From an uncultured virus (IMG/VR IMGVR_UViG_2061766007_000180) (lineage: Duplodnaviria > Heunggongvirae > Uroviricota > Caudoviricetes), in the IMG/VR virus record IMGVR_UViG_2061766007_000180: a stretch of 64,000 nt of DNA; one strand, 5' to 3'. This document shows, piece by piece, positions 3,808-45,650 of this stretch. How positions within the stretch are numbered: the first letter of the stretch is position 1; each line of letters begins with the position of its first letter. The notes beneath the pieces are model-generated. The model worked only from the letters and a program-made list of their open reading frames with translations, did no database searches and was not told the origin of the DNA. A program made the translations under genes and the position numbers.

Positions 3808-5049
3808 ATGCAAAAGCTCCTGATCCAAGAATTCATCTCCTCCCATTCCGACTGGGAGAGGATCCTTCCGGAAAAGCCCTACTGCCTCAACATCCAGCGG
3901 GACTCCAAGTTCGGAAGGAATCTCGTCCTGTTCAAGTACAACCAGATCGAGTCGGATTTCTCGATTCCCCTAGTCCGGGAGTGCCGGGGGCTGATCCTCG
4001 ACGCGGACACGTTCGAGCCGGTATGTGTTCCGTTCTTCAAGTTTTTTAACTTTTCAGAAAATCTTGCAGACGAGATCGACTGGAAGACAGCGTGGGTGGG
4101 CATGAAAATTGACGGTTCATTGACGAAGGTCGTCCGGCTCGGAAACGACCTCCTCGTCTCCACGAACGGGACGATCGACGCGTACAAGGCTCCTATCCAG
4201 GACCAGATTGGATTCGTCGGAAAGACCTTCGGAGACCTCTTCGAGATGGCCGTCGCGAACGCCAAGGAAAGGTACGACAGGATCTCCCTCGAGAACCACT
4301 ACGCGAGGGAGGATTGGTATCTCGCTCCGATGGACTGGTTCAGGAACCTCCTCCAGGAGGGCTACACCTACATGTTCGAGCTGACCTCCCGGTACAACCA
4401 CATCGTCGTGAAGTTCGGGGATCCGGAGATCCACCTCATCGGGATCAGGGACAACCAGACTTTTCGGGAGATCGAGTTCTTCAACCATCCCCTCTCCCGG
4501 TTCTTCCACACTCCGGAGCTCTTCAGTCTTGGAACCCTGAAGGAGGTGGAGGAGGCCGCGGAGAAGCTCGACGCCAATCACGAGGGATTCGTGGTCTGCG
4601 ACGGGAATTTCCGCCGGGTGAAGGTGAAATCGTCGACGTATGTCGCCATCCACCACCTTCGCGGAGAGGGCGGGGCTCCCTCGTTCGAGCGCGGGATCGA
4701 GATCGTCCGGAAGAACGAGCTCGACGAGGTCCTGACGTACTTCCCCGAGTTCAGGGAGCACCTGGAGAAGATCAGGTCCGACCTTGACACCCTCGTCGAG
4801 AGGCTCGATTCCGGGTGGGATCTTCTCCGGAAAAACCTTTCCGGACTTCCCTCCCGGAAGGATCGGGCGCTGTTCATCATGTCGGACGAGTGCTTCGGAA
4901 AGAAGTTCTCCGGAGTCGGGTTCTCCCTCCTGGACGGAAAGGTCTCCTCCGCGAGGGAATGGGTCGAGAAGTGTCCGGCGAAGAATCTCGTGAAATACCT
5001 AGGATACAAGGAAAATAAACATGAAAATCAAGATCTCCAAGAAGAATAA
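3808..5049 (+). CDS. T4 Rnl1-like ATP-dependent RNA ligase
   Basis: ECRGLI, PFFKFFN, motif I KIDGSL, TYMFEL, motif IV EGFVV, motif V RVKVKS. Confidence 0.9.
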   Translation: MQKLLIQEFISSHSDWERILPEKPYCLNIQRDSKFGRNLVLFKYNQIESDFSIPLVRECRGLILDADTFEPVCVPFFKFFNFSENLADEIDWKTAWVGMKIDGSLTKVVRLGNDLLVSTNGTIDAYKAPIQDQIGFVGKTFGDLFEMAVANAKERYDRISLENHYAREDWYLAPMDWFRNLLQEGYTYMFELTSRYNHIVVKFGDPEIHLIGIRDNQTFREIEFFNHPLSRFFHTPELFSLGTLKEVEEAAEKLDANHEGFVVCDGNFRRVKVKSSTYVAIHHLRGEGGAPSFERGIEIVRKNELDEVLTYFPEFREHLEKIRSDLDTLVERLDSGWDLLRKNLSGLPSRKDRALFIMSDECFGKKFSGVGFSLLDGKVSSAREWVEKCPAKNLVKYLGYKENKHENQDLQEE

Positions 5050-38719: not shown

Positions 38720-39175
38720 TCAGGAAAGCCTCTCCGCGGCTTCCTTCCCCATCTTCTCGGCGTCGAAACGGTACTCCAGGCCGAATTCCTCGATCTGATC
38801 CGGAGTCCACGCTCTCTTCATGTCCCGATCGTAGCAGTTTCCGTCTTCCGGAAGATACGCGTGGACAAGGTCGTCCTCCCCGAGATACAGGAAGAAGGCG
38901 ACCGGAAGCTCCCAGTCTCCTCCTGCGGCGGAGTGGAATACCGGGATCTGCGTTCCCGGAAGAAGATGGAATCCGGCTGGGCCGCCGTAACCCGGCATGT
39001 CGAACGGATCGTTTCCCGGAAAAAGGAAGTTTTCCGTGTCGAAGTCGATCTCGGAAAGGTCGTCCGTTATCTGCCGCGGAATCTCGGAGCTCTCTCCGTC
39101 CGGAGAGAAGCTTTTCGAAATGGCTTCCTGGAGCCGGTCGGAACCGACGTCTTTCTTTGCCTTGACTATGCTCAT
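38720..39175 (-). CDS. Conserved phage hypothetical protein
   Basis: AGGDWE.PV.F..Y....AY.P..GN pattern; AAAGGA RBS. Confidence 0.7.
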   Translation of the reverse strand: MSIVKAKKDVGSDRLQEAISKSFSPDGESSEIPRQITDDLSEIDFDTENFLFPGNDPFDMPGYGGPAGFHLLPGTQIPVFHSAAGGDWELPVAFFLYLGEDDLVHAYLPEDGNCYDRDMKRAWTPDQIEEFGLEYRFDAEKMGKEAAERLS

Positions 39176-39197
39176 CTGGTGTTTTCCTTTGTAGAGA

Positions 39198-39272
39198 TGG
39201 TCACTCCGGTCGGACTCGAACCGACATGGGAGGGATTAGAAATCCCTTGCAAATCCTTTTTGCGACGGAGTG
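39198..39272 (-). tRNA. tRNA-Arg(TCT)
   Basis: CACTCCG/CGGAGTG-A-CCA; AGGGA-TTTCTAA-TCCCT; GTCGG-TTCGAGT-CCGAC. Confidence 0.9.
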
Positions 39273-39362
39273 GTGTCTTTCCCGATCTTGGGTGTGTTCA
39301 TGTCAAGAAGTATACAGGATCTTCCCGCGAATGTCAAGCGAAAACGGGCGGTCTGGATCAGA

Positions 39363-39692
39363 TGGTGGAGAAGACGGGAGTCGAACCCGTTTCCGGAACG
39401 GTCCTTCGGAACGCTTTCTACGACAGTTTCCTACGGAAGTTTAACCTCTCACCCCAATAGGAATCGGATGACAGGCGAGAATCCTCGTTTGAGATCCTTC
39501 GGGCGAGGAGACGAGACCCTCGGAAATGCCAGATAAAGAGTGCCCTACTCGGACCTTATCTGGCGTGTGGTTCTTTCGGGTGGCTCATGCGGCCATTCTG
39601 TAGCTGTTGCCAGTTACTGTTCTTGAACTTACGGCTTCCGCCGTGTCGCTGCGCTCGTGGGACTTGGTTCCGTCGAATGCCGGAACTTCCCC
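39363..39692 (-). ncRNA. ssrA: tmRNA, predicted tag (A)GNSYRMAA
   Basis: GGGGAAG...ATTCGACG 5' end; GGTTCGACTCCCGTCTTCTCCACCA 3' end; G3:U70; TAACT-GGC resume; tag ORF 39611-39585. Confidence 0.92.
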
Positions 39693-39705
39693 TCAAAATC
39701 ATTGG

Positions 39706-40686
39706 TTATTGATGATCAAACCACCATAAAAATTGTTTGATCTTAAACTTCATCCTTTTCTTTCCAACATTATTGTTTATGTTGTTCCAGGCAATTCTAT
39801 AAATGATATATCCATTTTCACGGAGTATTCTATCACGTTTTCTGTCATTTTGTATCCTGTCTGAATATGTATGTTGTTTTCCGTCAATTTCAAGATTTAT
39901 AAGTTTTCCATTCTTTTTTATCAAGAAATCTAAGAAATACCCAAATACTGGAGTCTCACGATTGAATGAAATTCCATTATTATCTAGAACCCTAGTCCAA
40001 AATTTCTCTGGATATGATGTAATATTACGAGATATCCAGCCTTTGTGAGTTCCAGTTAGAACTCTTTGTTGTTGGGCATCTCTCAATCGTTGGCGTGTTT
40101 TTTCTGAAATAATACGTTTCCCAGATTTTGTGTATAACTGATAATGATGTTTGTTTAGTCTGTCACAACATTCGTAACAGTATGCTTTGTTTAGTGTTTT
40201 AATCCAGATTGTTTTTCCACAAGAGGAACATTTAGACATATATGGACGAGGTGATGTTTTTTGTTTGCTGTTTTTTCTGTCTTTTCTAGAATATCCCCAT
40301 TTTTTCAAATAGCATTTGTCACAAAGGGTTTTGTGGGTTGAACATCCAACGTGTATAAATTCTTTTCCACATTCTGGGCAAATGTGCTTTCTGGGTTTTG
40401 ATGTGGATAATGACGTTTTTATTTTTGATTCTTTTGTGCGAATATGTGAATTTGCATGTTCTCGACAACAGAATTGTGGTATTCTATAGTTCATTTTAAA
40501 GTGGCGGATTTTTAGCCTCTTTATAAATTTCTTTCCACATTTCTTACAAATTATTGTAAAATTTTCATATGCTTCATCTGGATCTTTTTTTAAAAATTTT
40601 TTTCTGTGTTCTGGTATATGTTCTTCTGAACATCTCTCGTTTTCTTCTGAATTGGGGAGTTTTAATGAAACGTCTTCATCTATCAT
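39706..40686 (-). CDS. Zn-finger / DUF559 (Vsr-like) homing endonuclease
   Basis: Several CxxC; SYPEK; YFLDF...LEIDGKQH...DRKRD..L...GY...RI.W; very AT-rich. Confidence 0.85.
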   Translation of the reverse strand: MIDEDVSLKLPNSEENERCSEEHIPEHRKKFLKKDPDEAYENFTIICKKCGKKFIKRLKIRHFKMNYRIPQFCCREHANSHIRTKESKIKTSLSTSKPRKHICPECGKEFIHVGCSTHKTLCDKCYLKKWGYSRKDRKNSKQKTSPRPYMSKCSSCGKTIWIKTLNKAYCYECCDRLNKHHYQLYTKSGKRIISEKTRQRLRDAQQQRVLTGTHKGWISRNITSYPEKFWTRVLDNNGISFNRETPVFGYFLDFLIKKNGKLINLEIDGKQHTYSDRIQNDRKRDRILRENGYIIYRIAWNNINNNVGKKRMKFKIKQFLWWFDHQ

Positions 40687-40808
40687 GGTTTTACCTTTAG
40701 TTTTATGTCGTTGTTCCACCAACGACATTTATACTTACAGTATTGTAAGAAAATCTGCTTCCATTCTTATGTTGGGTGGAACCATGATAGAATGGAAGCA
40801 GGGAAAAA

Positions 40809-40880
40809 TCGGGGAACCCGGAAGTCGCACCGGGGCCTTCTCGTCCCAAGCGAGGCGTGCTGCTCTTATACCATTCCCCG
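40809..40880 (-). tRNA. tRNA-Pro(TGG), CCA not encoded
   Basis: CGGGGAA/TTCCCCG-A; loop CTTGGGA; T-loop TGCGACT. Confidence 0.85.
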
Positions 40881-40902
40881 TAATCGTATCGAATTTTTCA
40901 AA

Positions 40903-41037
40903 GGTTGCGCCGGTCCGGATTTCCGGAGACAGAGCTGGCCAGATTGCATCTCCCCGGCATCTTTCCGGAAAGGACGGTTCCGGATGCGCTTTCCGGAAAG
41001 GTCTTCCTCGGAACGTTCTGGTTTGAACTACGGCAAA
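40903..41037 (-). ncRNA. tRNA-derived RNA with expanded arms
   Basis: GCCG-TA-GTTC-AAACCA-GAAC D-arm start; ends TCCGG-AAAT-CCGGA-CCGGCGCAACC. Confidence 0.4.
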
Positions 41038-41113
41038 TGGCGACCCGGCCAGAACTCGAATCTGGAAATAATCCTTAGGGGGGATTCGTGATATCCGATT
41101 TCACCACAGGGTC
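41038..41113 (-). tRNA. tRNA-Arg(CCT), C33
   Basis: GACCCTG/CCGGGTC-G-CCA; AATCC-CCCCTAA-GGATT. Confidence 0.85.
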
Positions 41114-41181
41114 TTTCGAAAGGGTGACATGTGGCAAGTTTACGGAAAGTTGCCGGATGTCGTGTTTTGAGACCGGAAGAT

Positions 41182-41264
41182 TTGCAAGGGATAGATTCGA
41201 ACTATCGAAGCCCGAAGGCAACGGGTTTACAGCCCGTCCTCGTTGACCACTTGAGTACCTTGCA
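41182..41264 (-). tRNA. tRNA-Tyr(GTA)
   Basis: TGCAAGG/CCTTGCA-A; ACGGG-CTGTAAA-CCCGT; long variable arm. Confidence 0.9.
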
Positions 41265-41273
41265 TTGAAAAAG

Positions 41274-41399
41274 GAAGGCGAGACGTAACATAGGCGCTCT
41301 AAGTGCTGAGCTACGGACCCGGAAATGGCGGGTCCGGCAGGAATTCCACCTGCGACCTCCTCCTTAACAAGGGATTAAGAGGAACGTCTTTGTGCCTTC
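41274..41399 (-). ncRNA. Circularly permuted tRNA-Asn(GTT)-like gene
   Basis: 3' half (41372-41326, ends CGGACCC-G-CCA) precedes 5' half (41320-41292, GGGTCCG...); complementary leader and trailer. Confidence 0.65.
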
Positions 41400-41403
41400 G
41401 AAA

Positions 41404-41541
41404 TGGAGCAAGATGCCGAACTCGCATCGGCGTAAACTACCTTTGGTCGTGGAACTTGGATTTGAACCAGGATTTCCTCGTGGTGTTCTACTTGAACTAT
41501 TCCACGGGAAGGGTAGCGCATGACTTCTCTGCCAACCTTGC
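41404..41541 (-). tRNA. tRNA-Gly(TCC) interrupted at 36/37 by a tRNA-like insert
   Basis: GCAAGGT/ATCTTGC-T-CCA; CTACC-CTTCC|insert|AA-GGTAG. Confidence 0.85.
41444..41506 (-). ncRNA. 63-nt tRNA-like element lacking a normal anticodon arm, nested in tRNA-Gly
   Basis: CGTGGAA/TTCCACG-A-CCA; GTTC/GAAC D stem; stub CC-ACGA-GG; TTCAAAT T-loop. Confidence 0.85.
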
Positions 41542-41650
41542 GTTTTGAAACCGTTGAACTATCGGCCCGTTGAAAAAGCAGATGCCGCAACCGGATTTCG
41601 CCAACAACGGCATCGGATTCTCTGCCTACAACATGGTAGGAGAGACTAAA

Positions 41651-41673
41651 TGGTACCTAGACTGGGACTTGAA
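41651..41673 (-). tRNA. 3' fragment of the split tRNA-Lys(TTT)
   Basis: TTCAAGT-CCCAG-TCTAGGT-A-CCA pairs (6/7) with ACCTTGA at 43284-43278. Confidence 0.7.
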
Positions 41674-43169
41674 TGTACTCATGAACATAAACTCCGTAAA
41701 GAAGTTTCGGAAATGCCAACGTTGGACTTTCTGTTCCTGAGCTGAAACCACCTCTCGTCTCCTCGAAGTGGAACCCTGTACATCATTCCAGAGTTTTTGA
41801 AGAAGGAATGCATCTCCTTCCAGGATCCGAAGCTCTCTTCCGTCCCAAATTCTTCCAACGACTTGGAGACGGCCTCGGCGAACCTCGGCATCCTGGGGAA
41901 TACGACGTTCCCCAAGCTTGAAATATTCCTGTCTACAAACTGCCTTCTGAACTCGTACCCCCTGCGGCCGATCTCGATCGACGCGTTGACCATGTCGGGA
42001 GCCCCGTGCCTCCTGAAGAGGATGTTTCCCACGAACGACGAGTAGGCCGCCGCGATCTCCTGAAAGTGGATTCCGGCTATCACACATCTTTTTCTCAGAT
42101 TGTCGACGAGCTTCTTCCTGAGCCACCTGTTGTTCCGGATCTTGTTCTGGTATTTCCCAAGCCCGGAATTCCCCGACCTCATGTCGAGGCTTTCCGCGGC
42201 GAAGGTCTCACACTGGAAGTACCTGGCCTTGTCGACGAGGTTTTTCGCGACCTCGAACGTCTCATGCCGCAACTTGTCGGCGGCGTATTTCCTTTTCTTG
42301 TCGGACGACGGGATCCCAAGCCTCCTCAAGGCCCATTCCCGGTCGTTCAGGTTCTTGAACGAATATACGCCGCTCTTCACGATCCGGTAGTCGTTCTCAT
42401 CCTTCCAGTCGACGACCGACCACCCAACGTAGTTCGGGTTCATGTCTATCGCCATGACCCGACTCTTGATCTGCTCGGTTCGGCGGACGCCGAACACGTC
42501 CTTCTCGTCGAATGTGATGTAGAGATGGTCCAACCCGAGCCTGAATGTCACCGGAGCCCGTTTTCCGACCTGGATCTCATGGAGTTTCTTCAGGATCTTC
42601 CTGATGTTCTTCCGGTTTCCGTATTCGAGCTTTAGGTCGAACCTGACGTCCCTGGAGGGCTGGAACAGGATATTGTCAAGGTCCTTCTGGATCCGGAAGT
42701 TCCTGTTTCCGTGATGTTCCCGGTCTCCGATGCAGTAGAACGGACTCAACCTCGCAAGCCTGAATTCCTCTCTCGTGATCCTCTTCCTGCATCTGGAAAC
42801 GAAGTTCTTCTTCCCTCCGAAGACGACCTTGTCGTTTAATGTGATGAGCTGAGTTGCTTCCTTGAACGCACAATGGAGAGTCCATTTCGAGATCATATGA
42901 AGGTTTTGAAGTTCTTCTGCCAGTTTCGTGGTTTCCTTCTCTCCAAGACCTTCCTTGACCCGATTGTAGACAAAATGCAGACAGTTGGAATATTGGCGAA
43001 GATGGGAAACCACGATTTCCTTCTCTTCGTCTGTCTCAACTGAATATCTGAGTTTTATCGTTTGCATTAGTCTTGTTGTTATTTACTACGGAAAGGTTCT
43101 GGAACTTTAATTGATTGTGTAATATTGTACACAATTTATGATTTTTAAGGTACTTTATTATTTTAAAAC
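41674..43169 (-). mobile_element. TnpB-only element inserted in tRNA-Lys
   Basis: Bounded by the two parts of tRNA-Lys; no transposase; AT-rich left end. Confidence 0.7.
41679..43067 (-). CDS. tnpB: TnpB-family RNA-guided endonuclease (no Zn-finger)
   Basis: RuvC-I AIDMNP, RuvC-II AAESL, AYSSFVGN, RuvC-III PDMVNASIEI. Confidence 0.85.
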   Translation of the reverse strand: MQTIKLRYSVETDEEKEIVVSHLRQYSNCLHFVYNRVKEGLGEKETTKLAEELQNLHMISKWTLHCAFKEATQLITLNDKVVFGGKKNFVSRCRKRITREEFRLARLSPFYCIGDREHHGNRNFRIQKDLDNILFQPSRDVRFDLKLEYGNRKNIRKILKKLHEIQVGKRAPVTFRLGLDHLYITFDEKDVFGVRRTEQIKSRVMAIDMNPNYVGWSVVDWKDENDYRIVKSGVYSFKNLNDREWALRRLGIPSSDKKRKYAADKLRHETFEVAKNLVDKARYFQCETFAAESLDMRSGNSGLGKYQNKIRNNRWLRKKLVDNLRKRCVIAGIHFQEIAAAYSSFVGNILFRRHGAPDMVNASIEIGRRGYEFRRQFVDRNISSLGNVVFPRMPRFAEAVSKSLEEFGTEESFGSWKEMHSFFKNSGMMYRVPLRGDERWFQLRNRKSNVGISETSLRSLCS

Positions 43170-43284
43170 AACCCACAGATTATGGACGTCACTGGGTGAA
43201 TTGCACACCCGCCTCCATTACTGGTGTTCTCTTTAGAAACTAAGTGACGAAAGTCTGTTGCTCTGCCAATTGAGCTATCAAGGT
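43170..43284 (-). tRNA. 5' part of tRNA-Lys(TTT), interrupted at 35/36 by a tRNA-like insert and then by the TnpB element
   Basis: ACCTTGA-TA-GCTC...GAGC-A-ACAGA-CTTT|insert|TAA-TCTGT-GGGTT. Confidence 0.8.
43183..43249 (-). ncRNA. 67-nt tRNA-like element with GNRA-capped stub instead of an anticodon arm, nested in tRNA-Lys
   Basis: CGTCACT/AGTGACG-T-CCA; CCA-GTAA-TGG stub; GGGTG-TGCAATT-CACCC. Confidence 0.85.
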
Positions 43285-43293
43285 GTTGAAGGG

Positions 43294-43464
43294 CTCGTGT
43301 GGGAAGACTCGAACTTCCAAACCTTTCGGCGGCAGATTATGGAGGAATGAAATGGATTCGAACCATTACCCCATGCCGAGGACCTAGTTAACCTCCAGAC
43401 AATGTATGCAACCTCTACACCATCATTCCACAGTCTGCTGCGGCTACCATTTCGCCACACACGA
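43294..43464 (-). tRNA. tRNA-Asn(GTT), long variable arm, interrupted at 35/36 by a tRNA-like insert
   Basis: TCGTGTG/CACACGA-G; GCAGA-CTGT|insert|TAA-TCTGC; GGAAG-TTCGAGT-CTTCC. Confidence 0.85.
43340..43429 (-). ncRNA. 90-nt tRNA-like element with elongated aberrant anticodon arm, nested in tRNA-Asn
   Basis: GGAATGA/TCATTCC-T-CCA; AATGG-TTCGAAT-CCATT. Confidence 0.85.
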
Positions 43465-43587
43465 TCAAAGCGCGAGGGTTTTTCTGGGGAGCCGTAACCT
43501 GAAACGGTCCTTGAGGCGAATTGCCCCCTGCCGGACTGAACGCCGCATGCTGCGCAATCCCAACCCACAAAGCAGTTCAAGAAGAAA

Positions 43588-43739
43588 TGGAGCGAGGGTC
43601 CCGATTCGGATTTCGTACGCTAGCATCCTACTTTCCGCGTCCTATGACAGGCCGGGCACGTGTTTTGGTCCCGAATCCGCCTCCGGCTCGACTAACCCGG
43701 CTCGCAACGGACTGGCTGTCCGTACGTCCGGCCCCTCGC
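43588..43739 (-). ncRNA. 152-nt RNA closed by a tRNA-like acceptor stem with U-CCA
   Basis: GCGAGGG/CCCTCGC-T-CCA; internal GATTCGG/CCGAATC; no T arm. Confidence 0.55.
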
Positions 43740-43764
43740 AATGACACACCGGAGTTGAGAAAAA

Positions 43765-43923
43765 GGAGCGGATCCGCCGACTGGAACCCCTTTCGAGGCC
43801 CCGAAGAGCTTTCTCCGGATGTTGGGTATTCCATTTTCCGGGAAGAGTCTTCTTCCTCGGAGTTTCTTTCGGGTGTCCCTATATCGGTGGAACACATCAG
43901 GTTTGACTCCCTGTCGGATCTGC
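43765..43923 (-). ncRNA. Structured ncRNA of unknown class (weakly 6S-like)
   Basis: GCAGATCCG/CGGATCCGC terminal stem; CCTGATGTGTTC motif. Confidence 0.4.
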
Positions 43924-43934
43924 TGAGATGAAAC

Positions 43935-44009
43935 TGGAGCTGGGTGGGAATTCCGAGATCCCATCGTCTTTCTTACAAGGAAAGTGCCTATCCGTTCGGC
44001 CAACCCAGC
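43935..44009 (-). tRNA. tRNA-Thr(TGT), aberrant T-loop
   Basis: GCTGGGT/ACCCAGC-T-CCA; CTTTC-CTTGTAA-GAAAG. Confidence 0.85.
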
Positions 44010-44013
44010 AAAA

Positions 44014-44088
44014 TGGTTCCGACGGAGGGTATCGATCCCACCTGACCCGTCTTAAAAGGACGGTACCTATCCTCTCGGTCACGTCGGA
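44014..44088 (-). tRNA. tRNA-Lys(TTT), uninterrupted
   Basis: TCCGACG/CGTCGGA-A-CCA; CCGTC-CTTTTAA-GACGG. Confidence 0.88.
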
Positions 44089-44094
44089 TCAAAT

Positions 44095-44169
44095 CGTTCC
44101 TGGAGGGACTTGAACCCCCAAAATCCTCCGTGAAAGGGAGGTGGCTATAACCAGTTTGCCTACAGGAAC
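44095..44169 (-). tRNA. tRNA-Glu(TTC), CCA not encoded
   Basis: GTTCCTG/CAGGAAC-G; CCTCC-CTTTCAC-GGAGG. Confidence 0.9.
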
Positions 44170-44341
44170 AAAGACGTTTCGGAACGCACCGGCCCGTACA
44201 CTAAACGGCGTCACGCGTCGGATCCCTCGGCTATGTTAGGCTCTTGAACGGCACGTCTGCTTCCGGAAATCGACCGTCGTCGGAACCGGAAATCGCCGAA
44301 CACCTCAAGCGGATCCGCTCTTCTGTTAGTATTCCATGAAA

Positions 44342-44417
44342 TGGTAGCGGGAGTAGGGCTCGAACCTACGACCTCCGGGGTATGAACCCGACAAGCTGCC
44401 AACTGCTCCATCCCGCT
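44342..44417 (-). tRNA. Initiator-type tRNA-Met(CAT)
   Basis: AGCGGGA/TCCCGCT-A-CCA; TGGAGCAG D arm; three G-C pairs closing loop TTCATAC. Confidence 0.9.
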
Positions 44418-44424
44418 GAAATCG

Positions 44425-44964
44425 TCATTGGTAATTCGGATCCGCCTGTATCACCCCAAACCGGTGGAAGTATTCCAACGGTCTCATTTTTCTGACTTTG
44501 GTCTCTCCCTTGCGCGGCACGTAGAATCCCCACTTGTGCCGCGGCCGTCCTTCAAGAAGAAGAGTCCACGCTCCGAATTCCGAGATGTTCAGAAAATGTC
44601 TTTGCTCGGCCTTTGAGAACCATATCGACCGTCCCAGGTTCCATGATGGCTTGTGCGTTTCCGAACCAAACAGGCCAATGACCTCGCAGAACCTCTTGTT
44701 GTTCCCAGACGGCGGCAGCTCCGGATCCAGAGGCACCGTGTTCCAGTACCGGCCCCAGATCACCACGCTTATGAAATTCGCAGCATGGTCGTGGAAATAC
44801 CTTCTGTCGTCCGATCTCAGCCAATGGTGGAGTCGTATTGTGAATCCGAATATCACCAATGTCCATCTGACGAGGTATGGATTTCTCGGATCCCCCAGTT
44901 TCTCCGCCCATCTCACCTGAAACAACTTTCCGAACGGTCTAGTGTCCGACGAACCTGTTGACAT
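44425..44964 (-). CDS. Conserved phage protein, cupin-like
   Basis: PYLVRW...IRLHH.LRSD...HDH...F.S; WGF; AAAGGAG RBS. Confidence 0.75.
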   Translation of the reverse strand: MSTGSSDTRPFGKLFQVRWAEKLGDPRNPYLVRWTLVIFGFTIRLHHWLRSDDRRYFHDHAANFISVVIWGRYWNTVPLDPELPPSGNNKRFCEVIGLFGSETHKPSWNLGRSIWFSKAEQRHFLNISEFGAWTLLLEGRPRHKWGFYVPRKGETKVRKMRPLEYFHRFGVIQADPNYQ

Positions 44965-44989
44965 GACAGTCTCCTTTGTGGTTGTTAAA

Positions 44990-45167
44990 TGGTCAGGTTG
45001 GTTGGATTCGAACCTCAAGGGATCCGATCAACGATCCCCTGGAGCCAGCGTGGGGGTTTCCACATCTTAAAGCTCTCACCATCCTCTCCGCGTAAACTCG
45101 CGTTCGTTATCCATGGATTCGAACATTTGAGCATTGGAGCGTGCTTCCCTATTACACCATCAACCCG
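44990..45167 (-). ncRNA. tRNA-like RNA with about 100-nt insertion in place of the anticodon arm
   Basis: CGGGTTG/CAACCTG-A-CCA; TGGTGTAATAGGGAAGCAC D arm; GGTTCGAATCC T arm. Confidence 0.6.
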
Positions 45168-45181
45168 TTGGATTTAAAGTT

Positions 45182-45254
45182 TGGACACGTGCGGATTCGA
45201 ACCGCGAACTTCTCGGTGCAAACGAGATGTGATACCAGATTTCACCACCGGCCC
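45182..45254 (-). tRNA. tRNA-Ala(TGC), acceptor mismatches
   Basis: TCTCG-TTTGCAC-CGAGA; G3:U70; GCGG-TTCGAAT-CCGC. Confidence 0.75.
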
Positions 45255-45650
45255 TTGAAATCACAGGCCGTCTCCGCTCAGGCGAGGGGTAGAGACTTGG
45301 GAGACGGCCGGTGGGGCTTTCGCCCCGATCTATTCGTAAATGAATAGGAACCCCATGTGCCATGCTTAAATCGAGAAGTCTCCGGAGCCGCTTTTCCGCC
45401 TGCCAAAGAAAGGAGTAAACAAAACAGGCCGTTCCACCTGGGGAGAGGTCCACCTCCCGGACGGAGACAAGGCGGAGGATAGGGGGAGAAAGGAAAGAAA
45501 ACCCCAGGCCCTCCGCACATCGTGACACCCGAAAAAGATAGGCCCGCCAAACAGGCCCTTCCACTTTTCGGGTCCGCGCTCGGCCAAACACCTGTTTAAG
45601 GTCGCCGAGCCGACCTCCGGAGAATTCCACTCCGGAAAATTCAAACCGCC

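Follow-up and report, generated by a model that had tools for sequence, protein, structure and literature searches.

Phage tRNA genes interrupted in the anticodon loop by tRNA-shaped introns, and a possible splicing route based on tRNA end maturation

A 64,000-nt stretch of DNA from an uncultured virus (IMG/VR record IMGVR_UViG_2061766007_000180), called here the window, carries on its minus strand three tRNA genes, for tRNA-Gly(TCC), tRNA-Lys(TTT) and tRNA-Asn(GTT), each of which is interrupted in the anticodon loop by an insert that itself resembles a tRNA. The locus raises the question of what these inserts are and whether functional tRNAs could be recovered from the genes that carry them. 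An earlier note on this DNA had proposed that nucleases of host tRNA processing excise the inner element and that an Rnl1-like RNA ligase of the phage joins the halves of the outer tRNA. The inserts were therefore compared with tRNA models, with related contigs and with the tRNA introns of other huge phages.

The inserts had been placed at sites 36/37 (Gly), 35/36 (Lys) and 35/36 (Asn), with lengths of 63, 67 and 90 nt, and the minus-strand coordinates (Table 1) as well as the scores obtained with the Rfam tRNA model RF00005 agreed with this placement. The Gly, Lys and Asn inserts scored 39.8, 30.7 and 39.4 bits, respectively, all three passing the gathering threshold of 29. In each of them a complete acceptor stem (7/7 bp) starts from the first base, a D arm is present, the T arm forms 4/5, 5/5 and 5/5 pairs, and the sequence ends in ACCA, TCCA and TCCA. 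The part that differs from a normal tRNA is the anticodon arm, whose model positions are replaced by 4, 4 and 27 nt (in the Asn insert 27 nt stand in place of 11 model positions). The canonical 5-bp anticodon stem with a 7-nt loop, needed for decoding, was found in none of the three inserts: the Gly and Lys inserts have 2-3-bp stubs with 4-nt loops and the Asn insert has 27 nt with a poor stem. The start at a perfect acceptor stem, the N-CCA end and the stub or aberrant anticodon arm described earlier were thus present in 3/3 inserts. For the whole tRNA-Gly(TCC) gene with its insert the minimum-energy fold was a nested cloverleaf. When presented alone to ARAGORN, one insert in three was called as a tRNA. 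The Gly and Lys inserts are paralogues, as a motif made of the D arm and the stub is common to both and occurs twice in the window, against 0.03 occurrences expected.

The outer genes were hidden from the tRNA finder as long as the inserts were in place: ARAGORN called 0/3 of them in the default mode and 1/3 (the GTT gene) in the intron mode. The sequences flanking the inserts pair into 5-bp anticodon stems with 7-nt loops that present TCC, TTT and GTT. After removal of the inserts in silico, ARAGORN called, also at the default threshold, Gly(tcc) of 75 nt with U73-CCA and Asn(gtt) of 83 nt, which carries G73 and has a long variable arm. No tRNA was called after removal of the Lys insert, so that two of the three outer genes were restored, and the expectation that removal would give back all three tRNAs held for Gly and Asn and failed for Lys, whose T arm is split by a block of about 1.5 kb. 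The discriminator bases agree with the restored anticodons, as had been claimed (U73 for Gly, A73 for Lys and G73 for Asn); A73 was also found in the tRNA-Tyr gene of the related locus described below. By its identity elements the outer GTT gene reads as tRNA-Asn and by its shape as a type II tRNA.

The Lys gene is interrupted twice. Its exon 2 breaks off after 13 nt, where the inserted block containing a TnpB/Cas12f-like gene intervenes, and the remnant of the tRNA 3' end directly follows the block (Table 1). The 5' strand of the T stem is missing. Removal of both the Lys insert and the block gave an ARAGORN call of Lys(ttt), 74 nt, with an unpaired T stem. Since the T arm is split by the block, the 5' strand of its stem is gone and the acceptor stem contains a T.T mismatch, the Lys gene of the window is a pseudogene. 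The earlier view of Lys as a third spliceable gene was therefore given up, and only Gly and Asn of the window could be spliced.

Among the 15 Rfam matches obtained at E<=10 in 38800-45600 there were no intron families, group I introns (RF00028) included. A group I reading was rejected on this result and on the length of 63-90 nt, and a bulge-helix-bulge (BHB) reading on the predicted fold, in which a 5x6 internal loop separates the anticodon stem of the outer tRNA from the acceptor stem of the insert; the earlier note had taken the same view of both. The splicing endonuclease family PF01974 was found in 0/3 huge-phage records and in none of the 70 window open reading frames (ORFs) scanned against Pfam. 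Group I introns of bacteria and phages are found in the same place, between positions 34/35 and 37/38 of the anticodon loops of tRNA-Leu(UAA), fMet, Ile and Arg, and they are mobile and have intron-less alleles, as do the window inserts. However, they are self-splicing ribozymes of at least about 200 nt with a P1-P9 core, whereas the window inserts are cloverleaves of 63-90 nt. The introns of archaeal and eukaryotic tRNAs, mostly located beside the anticodon, are removed by enzymatic cutting and ligation and in this respect resemble the route proposed below. They depend on the BHB (two 3-nt bulges and a 4-bp helix), the EndA/Sen endonuclease and the RtcB or Trl1 ligase, and pass through 2',3'-cyclic phosphate and 5'-OH ends, unlike the window inserts with their 5x6 loop and predicted 3'-OH and 5'-phosphate ends.

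The junctions were next compared with public contigs. A Logan contig of the likely source sample, which is not independent of the window, was identical to it over 41210-45237 (0 differences). A contig from another study covered the Gly gene with its insert (41280-41550) with 4 differences and no gaps, the Gly insert 41444-41506 was present in a contig of X6, and a short contig of a third study crossed Lys exon 1, the intron and exon 2 at approximately 92 % identity. Contigs of four runs were aligned to 39000-45500 at 80 % likeness, a level at which joints can mislead. In a low-depth X1 contig, approximately 88 % alike in a 156-nt flank, position 43588 was joined to 41541 and exactly 41444-41506 was skipped; this joint comes from one contig with a shorter side of 35 nt and carries moderate weight. 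With that weight, the X1 contig is read as a related strain that has an uninterrupted tRNA-Gly and is devoid of Asn, Lys and the TnpB-like block. An intron-less allele of the window Asn or Lys gene was not seen; much of the Asn gene and some other bins lie outside the cover of runs X5, X6 and X8, to which no weight is given. Since intron-less alleles exist in relatives, the inserts are mobile DNA, and they are best regarded as genuine, DNA-encoded, mobile tRNA-shaped introns.

A second carrier of introns of the window type was found by a motif scan of metagenome contigs, which gave at least 118 matches; 80 loci were fetched and 1/80, the locus L135, proved to be a true relative, so the architecture sought in related contigs does occur elsewhere. 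L135 contains a row of tRNA-Met, tRNA-Lys(CTT) with an intron and a type II tRNA-Tyr(GTA) with an insert. The intron of Lys(CTT) is an orthologous 67-nt intron at 35/36 that differs from that of the window in 4 positions, with the GNRA loop kept and one acceptor pair changed from T-A to T.G. The two Lys genes are homologous from exon 1 through the intron to the 13th nt of exon 2, and no further. The 3' half of the L135 gene is intact, and after removal of the intron ARAGORN called Lys(ctt), 76 nt, with A73-CCA; the anticodons of the two Lys genes differ at the wobble base only. The tRNA-Tyr(GTA) gene, with A73-CCA, carries at 35/36 a 75-nt insert that is a canonical tRNA-Asp(GTC) (Rfam 50.7 bits, G73-CCA), and the Tyr gene too was called as a tRNA by ARAGORN once the insert was removed. 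Because the insert is a canonical tRNA-Asp, normal tRNA processing would have to cut the Tyr precursor at both borders. The outer Asn gene of the window (GTT, G73) shares anticodon-stem flanks with the L135 Tyr gene (GTA, A73; minus strand, approximately 150-325 of the locus), and anticodon and discriminator change jointly between them, which suggests an identity switch within one lineage of tRNA genes.

The nested arrangement is far from chance. A scan for tRNAs within tRNAs over approximately 1.2 Mb gave 7 hits (6 distinct genes) from 1304 inner candidates, and reversed sequences gave 0 from 1077; the hits were the Gly and Asn genes of the window, one gene of a locus designated L015, and the Gly, Thr and 'Tyr' genes of Lak phages. 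In nine introns of unrelated sequence 63/63 acceptor pairs and 43/45 T-stem pairs were kept, while pairing the strands of different introns with each other gave a mean of 2.85 of 7 acceptor pairs. The acceptor stems are thus kept through covariation. RNase P, RNase Z and the CCA enzyme recognise the acceptor/T-arm part of a tRNA, and the kept parts of the inserts seem to be exactly those recognised by these enzymes.

The borders of the introns follow a rule as well. All introns of the window type (5/5, three from the window and two from L135) start at acceptor base 1 and end N-CCA. The window introns end N73-CCA, as most stand-alone tRNA genes of the window do (CCA is encoded in 6/9). In Lak-A2 the stand-alone genes encode CCA in 0/28 and C74 in 28/28 cases and the introns end N73-C74; for L015 the corresponding numbers are 0/5 and 5/5 and the intron again ends N73-C74. 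The 3' border of the intron follows the tRNA-end convention of each phage, and in Lak phages this border is fixed by the existence of intron-less alleles. The 5' border of the window type coincides with the predicted RNase P site. Outer genes with intact cloverleaves make up 4/5 of the window type and 4/4 of the Lak type. The matching discriminators, the joint change of anticodon and discriminator between the Asn and Tyr genes, the wobble-only difference between the two Lys anticodons and the four compensatory pairs of the Lak-B1 Asn gene described below are suggestive only of functional outer tRNAs.

The Lak introns deserve a closer description, as they show that the arrangement is not undescribed, contrary to what the earlier note supposed. 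The paper of Devoto et al. 2019 (PMC6784885; preprint 10.1101/356790) reports 'enigmatic' introns in the Lak tRNAs Phe(GAA), Gly(TCC), Thr(TGT) and 'Tyr(GTA)', states that the intron sets differ among Lak-A1, A2 and C1, and remarks that the Thr intron 'itself may encode a tRNA'. In a 2021 Lak paper, eukaryotic tRNAscan settings were chosen because of the introns in Lak tRNAs, and PMC13037316 (2026) says of jumbo-phage tRNA introns that they 'could encode another tRNA'. A mechanism for huge-phage tRNA introns was not found in the literature searched, whose coverage leaves out most subscription journals.

The Lak cases were re-analysed with 74 loci around relatives of the TnpB-like protein and the tRNA regions of Lak-A2. 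The Gly(TCC) gene is uninterrupted in Lak-A1 and has an 87-nt insert in A2 and C1. The Thr(TGT) gene is uninterrupted in Lak-C1 and MT837178 and carries 114 nt in A1 and A2, with an unambiguous junction and with exons that are identical in the interrupted and intron-less alleles. The Gly alleles have identical flanks but differ in the anticodon stem beside the insert, by two compensatory pairs and a further two bases, a pattern that resembles a co-conversion tract. An uninterrupted Asn(GTT) gene of Lak-A2 has an interrupted orthologue in Lak-B1, and four compensatory stem pairs separate the two. The gene printed as Tyr(GTA) (L083 14503-14667 in Lak-A2; L087 in Lak-B1) reads CTGT/TAA across the intron site, with G73, and since it aligns with the uninterrupted Asn(GTT) orthologue, the published 'Tyr(GTA)' is Asn(GTT) with an intron at 35/36. 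Lak-A2 and Lak-B1 carry one and the same Asn intron (97 % identity, a 48-nt indel) in two Asn genes whose exons differ strongly.

All four Lak-type introns share one plan: a start with ATAC, TTAC, ATAC or ATAT, a 5-bp hairpin, an A-rich linker and a tRNA-like element, which has a 7-bp acceptor stem, a -1:73 pair and an end at N73-C74. The tRNA-like module closes three Lak-A2 introns and the L015 intron. Explaining the 5' module as an ordinary tRNA leader was rejected, as the leaders of stand-alone Lak tRNAs are AT-rich, mostly with T at -1, and lack the motif. In the intron mode with a lowered threshold ARAGORN gave 22 intron-bearing calls, of which 8 had a T-arm-like hairpin in the 'intron'; 5/8 (two in L019, the 'Leu' of L022 and two in L074) were judged by eye, from the complete tRNAs and spacers that they enclose, to be chimeras of neighbouring tRNAs, and weak Lak-A2 calls with introns of 15, 23, 26 and 143 nt were set aside. 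Three tRNA-like genes of 102-121 nt with odd anticodon regions and an extra long arm were noted in Lak-A2 (L080 3743-3977 and L081 608-709; ARAGORN introns of 15, 26 and 23 nt). The L015 gene had no relative among the phage records, and the exon word of L022 matched only its own record.

The window introns resemble those described in PMC6784885 in being short and highly conserved, in giving no Rfam intron match, in lying in anticodon loops of huge-phage tRNAs and in their patchy distribution among relatives: presence and absence among related phages was found for the window Gly gene (from the X1 contig, with its moderate weight) and for the Lak Gly, Thr and Asn genes. The sites Gly(TCC) 36/37 and Asn(GTT) 35/36 carry introns in Lak phages as well as in the window, and the introns of the two are unrelated. 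The two types differ in that no sequence similarity was found between them, the window type has no 5' module (a 0-nt extension), so that the tRNA-like element alone makes up the intron, the Lak introns end N73-C74 and not in an encoded NCCA, and the phage lineages are different. The window inserts are therefore best described as a CCA-ended, leader-less variant of the unexplained introns that interrupt tRNA genes in Lak phages and further huge phages of the gut.

How could such genes be expressed? In the proposed route each insert would itself be the substrate for tRNA end maturation. RNase P would cut at the first base of the insert and leave a 3'-OH on exon 1, and a 3'-end endonuclease of the RNase Z/BN type would cut right after the encoded 3' end (N73-CCA in the window, N73-C in Lak phages) and leave a 5'-phosphate on exon 2. 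The acceptor, D, T and anticodon helices of the outer tRNA would hold the halves together as a nicked anticodon loop, a natural substrate for an ATP-dependent RNA ligase, and the nick could be sealed by the phage Rnl1 without end healing. The Gly and Asn tRNAs would be restorable in this way. The candidate ligase, pointed out in the earlier note, was confirmed by its match to PF09511 (Table 1), by phrog_562 (E 2.3e-46) and by the T4 Rnl1 structure 2C5U (E 1.1e-16, with the K-x-D-G-S-L lysine motif aligned), and its ORF 3808-5049 is accordingly assigned by sequence to the T4 Rnl1 family. The covariation of acceptor and T stems, the convention at the 3' border and the position of the 5' border at the RNase P site led us to infer this scheme; the anatomy, the polymorphism of the inserts, the covariation, the rule for the 3' border and an intact ligase gene are shown by the sequences, whereas every enzymatic step and the function of the spliced tRNAs belong to the inferred part, and the splicing mechanism with RNase P, a 3'-end endonuclease and Rnl1 is held to be an evenly balanced proposition. 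By its borders it is the best-fitting route for the window type and does not fit the Lak type as it stands.

Each part of the route has a counterpart in known systems. tRNA-like processing signals are present in MALAT1 mascRNA, mitochondrial tRNA punctuation and tRNA-linked small RNAs, where, as proposed here, the tRNA shape recruits RNase P and RNase Z; in contrast to the window, the flanks are not re-joined there and are not halves of another tRNA. In T4, tRNA-Lys cut by PrrC is healed by Pnkp and sealed by Rnl1 (Iyer et al. 2021, PMC7824862). The sealing of a nick with 3'-OH and 5'-phosphate in the anticodon loop by an Rnl1-type enzyme is common to T4 repair and the proposed route, but the T4 nick is inflicted by the host and needs end healing, whereas the nick in the window tRNAs would be programmed by the gene architecture and would need no kinase or phosphatase.

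Several observations weigh against the splicing route. The Lys gene of the window is broken and has T.T at the acceptor pair 5:68, where L135 has C-G, so at least one outer gene of this kind has been allowed to decay, and an intact Lys(TTT) gene stands elsewhere in the window. Between the window and L135 the Lys genes differ about alike in exon 1 (3/35) and in the intron (4/67). The long variable arm of the outer Asn gene is atypical and its CCA is not encoded, and the compensatory and identity changes seen in outer genes could predate the gain of the introns. Cutting exactly after an encoded CCA has its precedents in RNase Z of Thermotoga and RNase BN of E. coli, and such an enzyme in the host of the window phage is putative. 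In the Lak type, 28-32 nt (WTAY, hairpin and A-rich linker) lie between the start of the intron and the inner acceptor stem, and RNase P alone could not define such a 5' splice site, which would need a different nuclease. The expected co-occurrence with Rnl1 did not prove general either: PF09511 and RtcB are absent from a complete 553-kb Lak-like record, which has only four PF09414 matches, and the 57 %-complete record from which L015 comes gave no match to any of the three ligase families. Rnl1 as the general partner was consequently rejected (PF09511 in 1/5 huge-phage records, RtcB in 0/3). In a wider form, the proposal would be a third protein-enzyme route of tRNA splicing, in phages of bacteria, in which the intron is a tRNA or its mimic, host RNase P and RNase Z/BN cut, a phage ATP-dependent ligase of the Rnl1 or Rnl2 type joins, and mobile introns home into anticodon loops (Gly-TCC, Asn-GTT, Lys, Tyr, Thr, Leu) across unrelated lineages of huge phages; this wider form is put forward tentatively, as falling somewhat short of an even chance.

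The same data could be explained without any splicing, if selfish tRNA or tRNA-like cassettes homed into the DNA of anticodon loops and inactivated the genes, the inner RNA being the sole product and the outer shells looking intact because the insertions are recent. The broken and mismatched Lys shell beside a second intact Lys(TTT) gene is what such a cassette would leave behind. Its mobility would be reflected in the Asn intron found in the two dissimilar Asn genes of Lak-A2 and Lak-B1, and recent invasion would fit the intron-less exons, which are identical (Thr) or different only beside the insert (Gly), as well as the co-conversion-like cluster beside the Lak Gly intron. However, the inner element is no replacement for the gene it occupies, being of another species (Asp in Tyr) or without an anticodon arm (the Gly and Lys introns). 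Lak-A2 would lose its Gly(TCC) and Thr(TGT) tRNAs, no other copy of which was called by ARAGORN in the tRNA regions fetched. Intact outer cloverleaves prevail in both types, and a cassette that always stays in place would have no need of borders lying exactly at processing sites. This explanation is considered unlikely, though it has to be taken seriously.

Alternatively, splicing could take place at the RNA level with other enzymes: a 5' cut of the RNase E type (N/WUAY followed by a hairpin, in the Lak type) or by a phage endonuclease, and joining by an Rnl2-type or host ligase, the tRNA shape being needed chiefly to position the 3' cut, or for the stability or use of the RNA after excision. 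The uniform start of all four Lak-type introns, with its hairpin and A-rich linker, and the Lak-like records that have PF09414 matches and no Rnl1 agree with this possibility. For the window type, on the other hand, the 5' border lies exactly at the RNase P site in 5/5 introns, no candidate endonuclease was identified, and the resemblance of N/WUAY before a hairpin to RNase E sites is presumed. This possibility is considered improbable.

Excision at the DNA level was also considered, with the introns as tiny non-autonomous transposons of the IS200/IS605-like kind that would be mobilised or homed by the neighbouring TnpB-like nuclease and would restore the gene in a part of the population. Alleles with and without the insert do coexist, and the TnpB/Cas12f-like gene, a member of a family that is multi-copy in huge phages, stands 13 nt downstream of the Lys intron. 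Against this, the ends of the introns are unlike those of the TnpB-like block, the insertion sites share a structure (the anticodon loop from 34/35 to 36/37) and not a target motif, the intron is missing from the contigs of X5 and X8 that carry the block, only 2/55 TnpB-like homologues are directly followed by a T-loop-like word, which is chance level, and the intron-less Gly of the X1 contig belongs to another strain, approximately 88 % alike, and is not an excision product. The reading of the introns as miniature derivatives of the TnpB-like element was dropped on the same unlike ends and the same 2/55 homologues, and DNA-level excision as a whole is very improbable. An assembly chimera of tRNA genes can practically be discounted: repeats abound in tRNA arrays and structural variants are concentrated in this region, but the source-sample Logan contig is identical over 41210-45237, a contig of another study crosses Gly with its insert, the orthologous Lys intron is present in L135 from a different collection, and complete Lak genomes that were curated separately have identical introns.

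For the RNase P/RNase Z/Rnl1 route, the 3'-border convention, the acceptor covariation and the borders fixed by intron-less alleles together give a concrete, testable scheme with known enzymes. In the literature searched, the kind of arrangement is already in print, without a mechanism, and has been 'enigmatic' since 2018-2019; the window and L135 provide its simplest form, in which the intron is exactly a tRNA or its mimic from the first base to CCA. If true, the scheme would amount to a new splicing pathway in bacterial systems and to a constitutive, housekeeping job for phage RNA ligases, usually regarded as repair enzymes. Standard tRNA finders would then under-count phage tRNAs, as ARAGORN in the default mode missed 3/3 outer genes. 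If the scheme is wrong, the inserts would be small mobile elements of a new kind, with anticodon loops as their target. The published label of the Lak 'Tyr(GTA)' gene is corrected to Asn(GTT).

Table 1. Positions of the interrupted tRNA genes and associated features in the window
Feature	Position	Strand	Remarks
tRNA-Gly(TCC) gene with intron	41404-41541	-	exon 1 41507-41541, intron 41444-41506, exon 2 41404-41443; U73-CCA encoded
Gly intron, 63 nt, site 36/37	41444-41506	-	7-bp acceptor, D arm, 2-bp stub for anticodon arm, T arm, A-CCA tail
Remnant tRNA-Lys 3' end	41651-41673	-	T loop, T-stem 3' strand, acceptor 3' strand, A73-CCA; directly after the block
Inserted block with TnpB/Cas12f-like gene (ORF 41679-43067, 462 aa)	41671-43169	-	approximately 1.5 kb; borders +/- few bases
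Lys exon 2, proximal part, 13 nt	43170-43182	-	loop TAA, anticodon stem 3' strand, variable loop
Lys intron, 67 nt, site 35/36	43183-43249	-	3-bp stub with GNRA loop, T-CCA tail
tRNA-Lys(TTT) exon 1	43250-43284	-	acceptor 5' strand, D arm, anticodon stem 5' strand, loop CTTT
Outer tRNA gene with anticodon GTT, G73, long variable arm	43294-43464	-	exon 1 43430-43464, intron 43340-43429, exon 2 43294-43339
Asn intron, 90 nt, site 35/36	43340-43429	-	tRNA-Ser-shaped, aberrant anticodon arm, T-CCA tail; ARAGORN Ser(gga)
Intact tRNA-Lys(TTT)	44014-44088		ARAGORN
T4 Rnl1-type RNA ligase, candidate sealing enzyme	3808-5049	+	PF09511, E 2.9e-14, 53.9 bits (cut-off 28.3)

The block that splits the Lys gene ends 8 nt past the stop codon of its ORF, and as 41671-43172/3 it is common to contigs of X5 and X8 at approximately 96 % identity, with other flanks. 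More than 800 relatives of the 462-aa ORF were found. Huge phages carry the family in multiple copies, and single contigs of 191 kb and 554 kb each hold several loci; the precomputed Pfam label of the family is PF27229. The D-E-D triad of RuvC (D208, E292, D358) is invariant in 34 sequences, and the predicted structure (pLDDT 84.9) gave Cas12f, Cas12k, TnpB and Fanzor2 as the top Foldseek folds (E 1e-8 to 1e-4). By fold and triad the product is thus a predicted nuclease of the TnpB/Cas12f type. A search with the TnpB-like protein alone gave no confirmed loci in IMG/VR.

The window most likely comes from a large uncultured phage of the rumen: public runs that contain this stretch are bovine gut metagenomes, and the phage lineage, from the rumen, has 51 % G+C. 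A BLAST search of 41150-43700 against 50,697 phage records revealed no close relative, with matches to tRNA-Tyr only. Exact words of the window had no match in IMG/VR or in JGI metagenome contigs, the gapped exon-intron-exon pattern had none in IMG/VR, and an 89-aa ORF of the window gave no confirmed loci in IMG/VR. In the profile scan most window ORFs had no Pfam family.

The interrupted genes belong to a minus-strand array of tRNA genes with a tmRNA gene at 39.2-45.3 kb of the window. The phage-encoded tmRNA (39363-39692, minus strand) lies within the array, scored 64.2 bits with Rfam and has the predicted tag GNSYRMAA. Between it and tRNA-Pro there is a 340-aa ORF (39706-40728, minus strand) whose product has a DUF559/MTES_1575 endonuclease domain and is a candidate for a free-standing homing endonuclease that serves the tRNA array, comparable to T4 SegB. 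In a permuted tRNA-like element at 41295-41353 (minus strand), a T arm, the acceptor 3' strand and GCCA come first, and a spacer of 5 nt separates them from the acceptor 5' strand, which pairs with the 3' strand at 7/7 positions, and a D arm. The element gave a weak match to YrlA (Y RNA-like) of 24.7 bits against a threshold of 69, and no Ro/TROVE gene was found among the window ORFs scanned. The segment 43588-43857 is common to contigs of the four runs (approximately 88-99 % identity), each of which differs downstream of 43588, and it may be the edge of a recombination hotspot or a conserved non-coding RNA. Directly upstream of the RNA ligase gene, at 1304-2966 of the window, a NADAR-domain protein (E 1.4e-68) and an I-HmuI-like ORF with a NUMOD domain are encoded.

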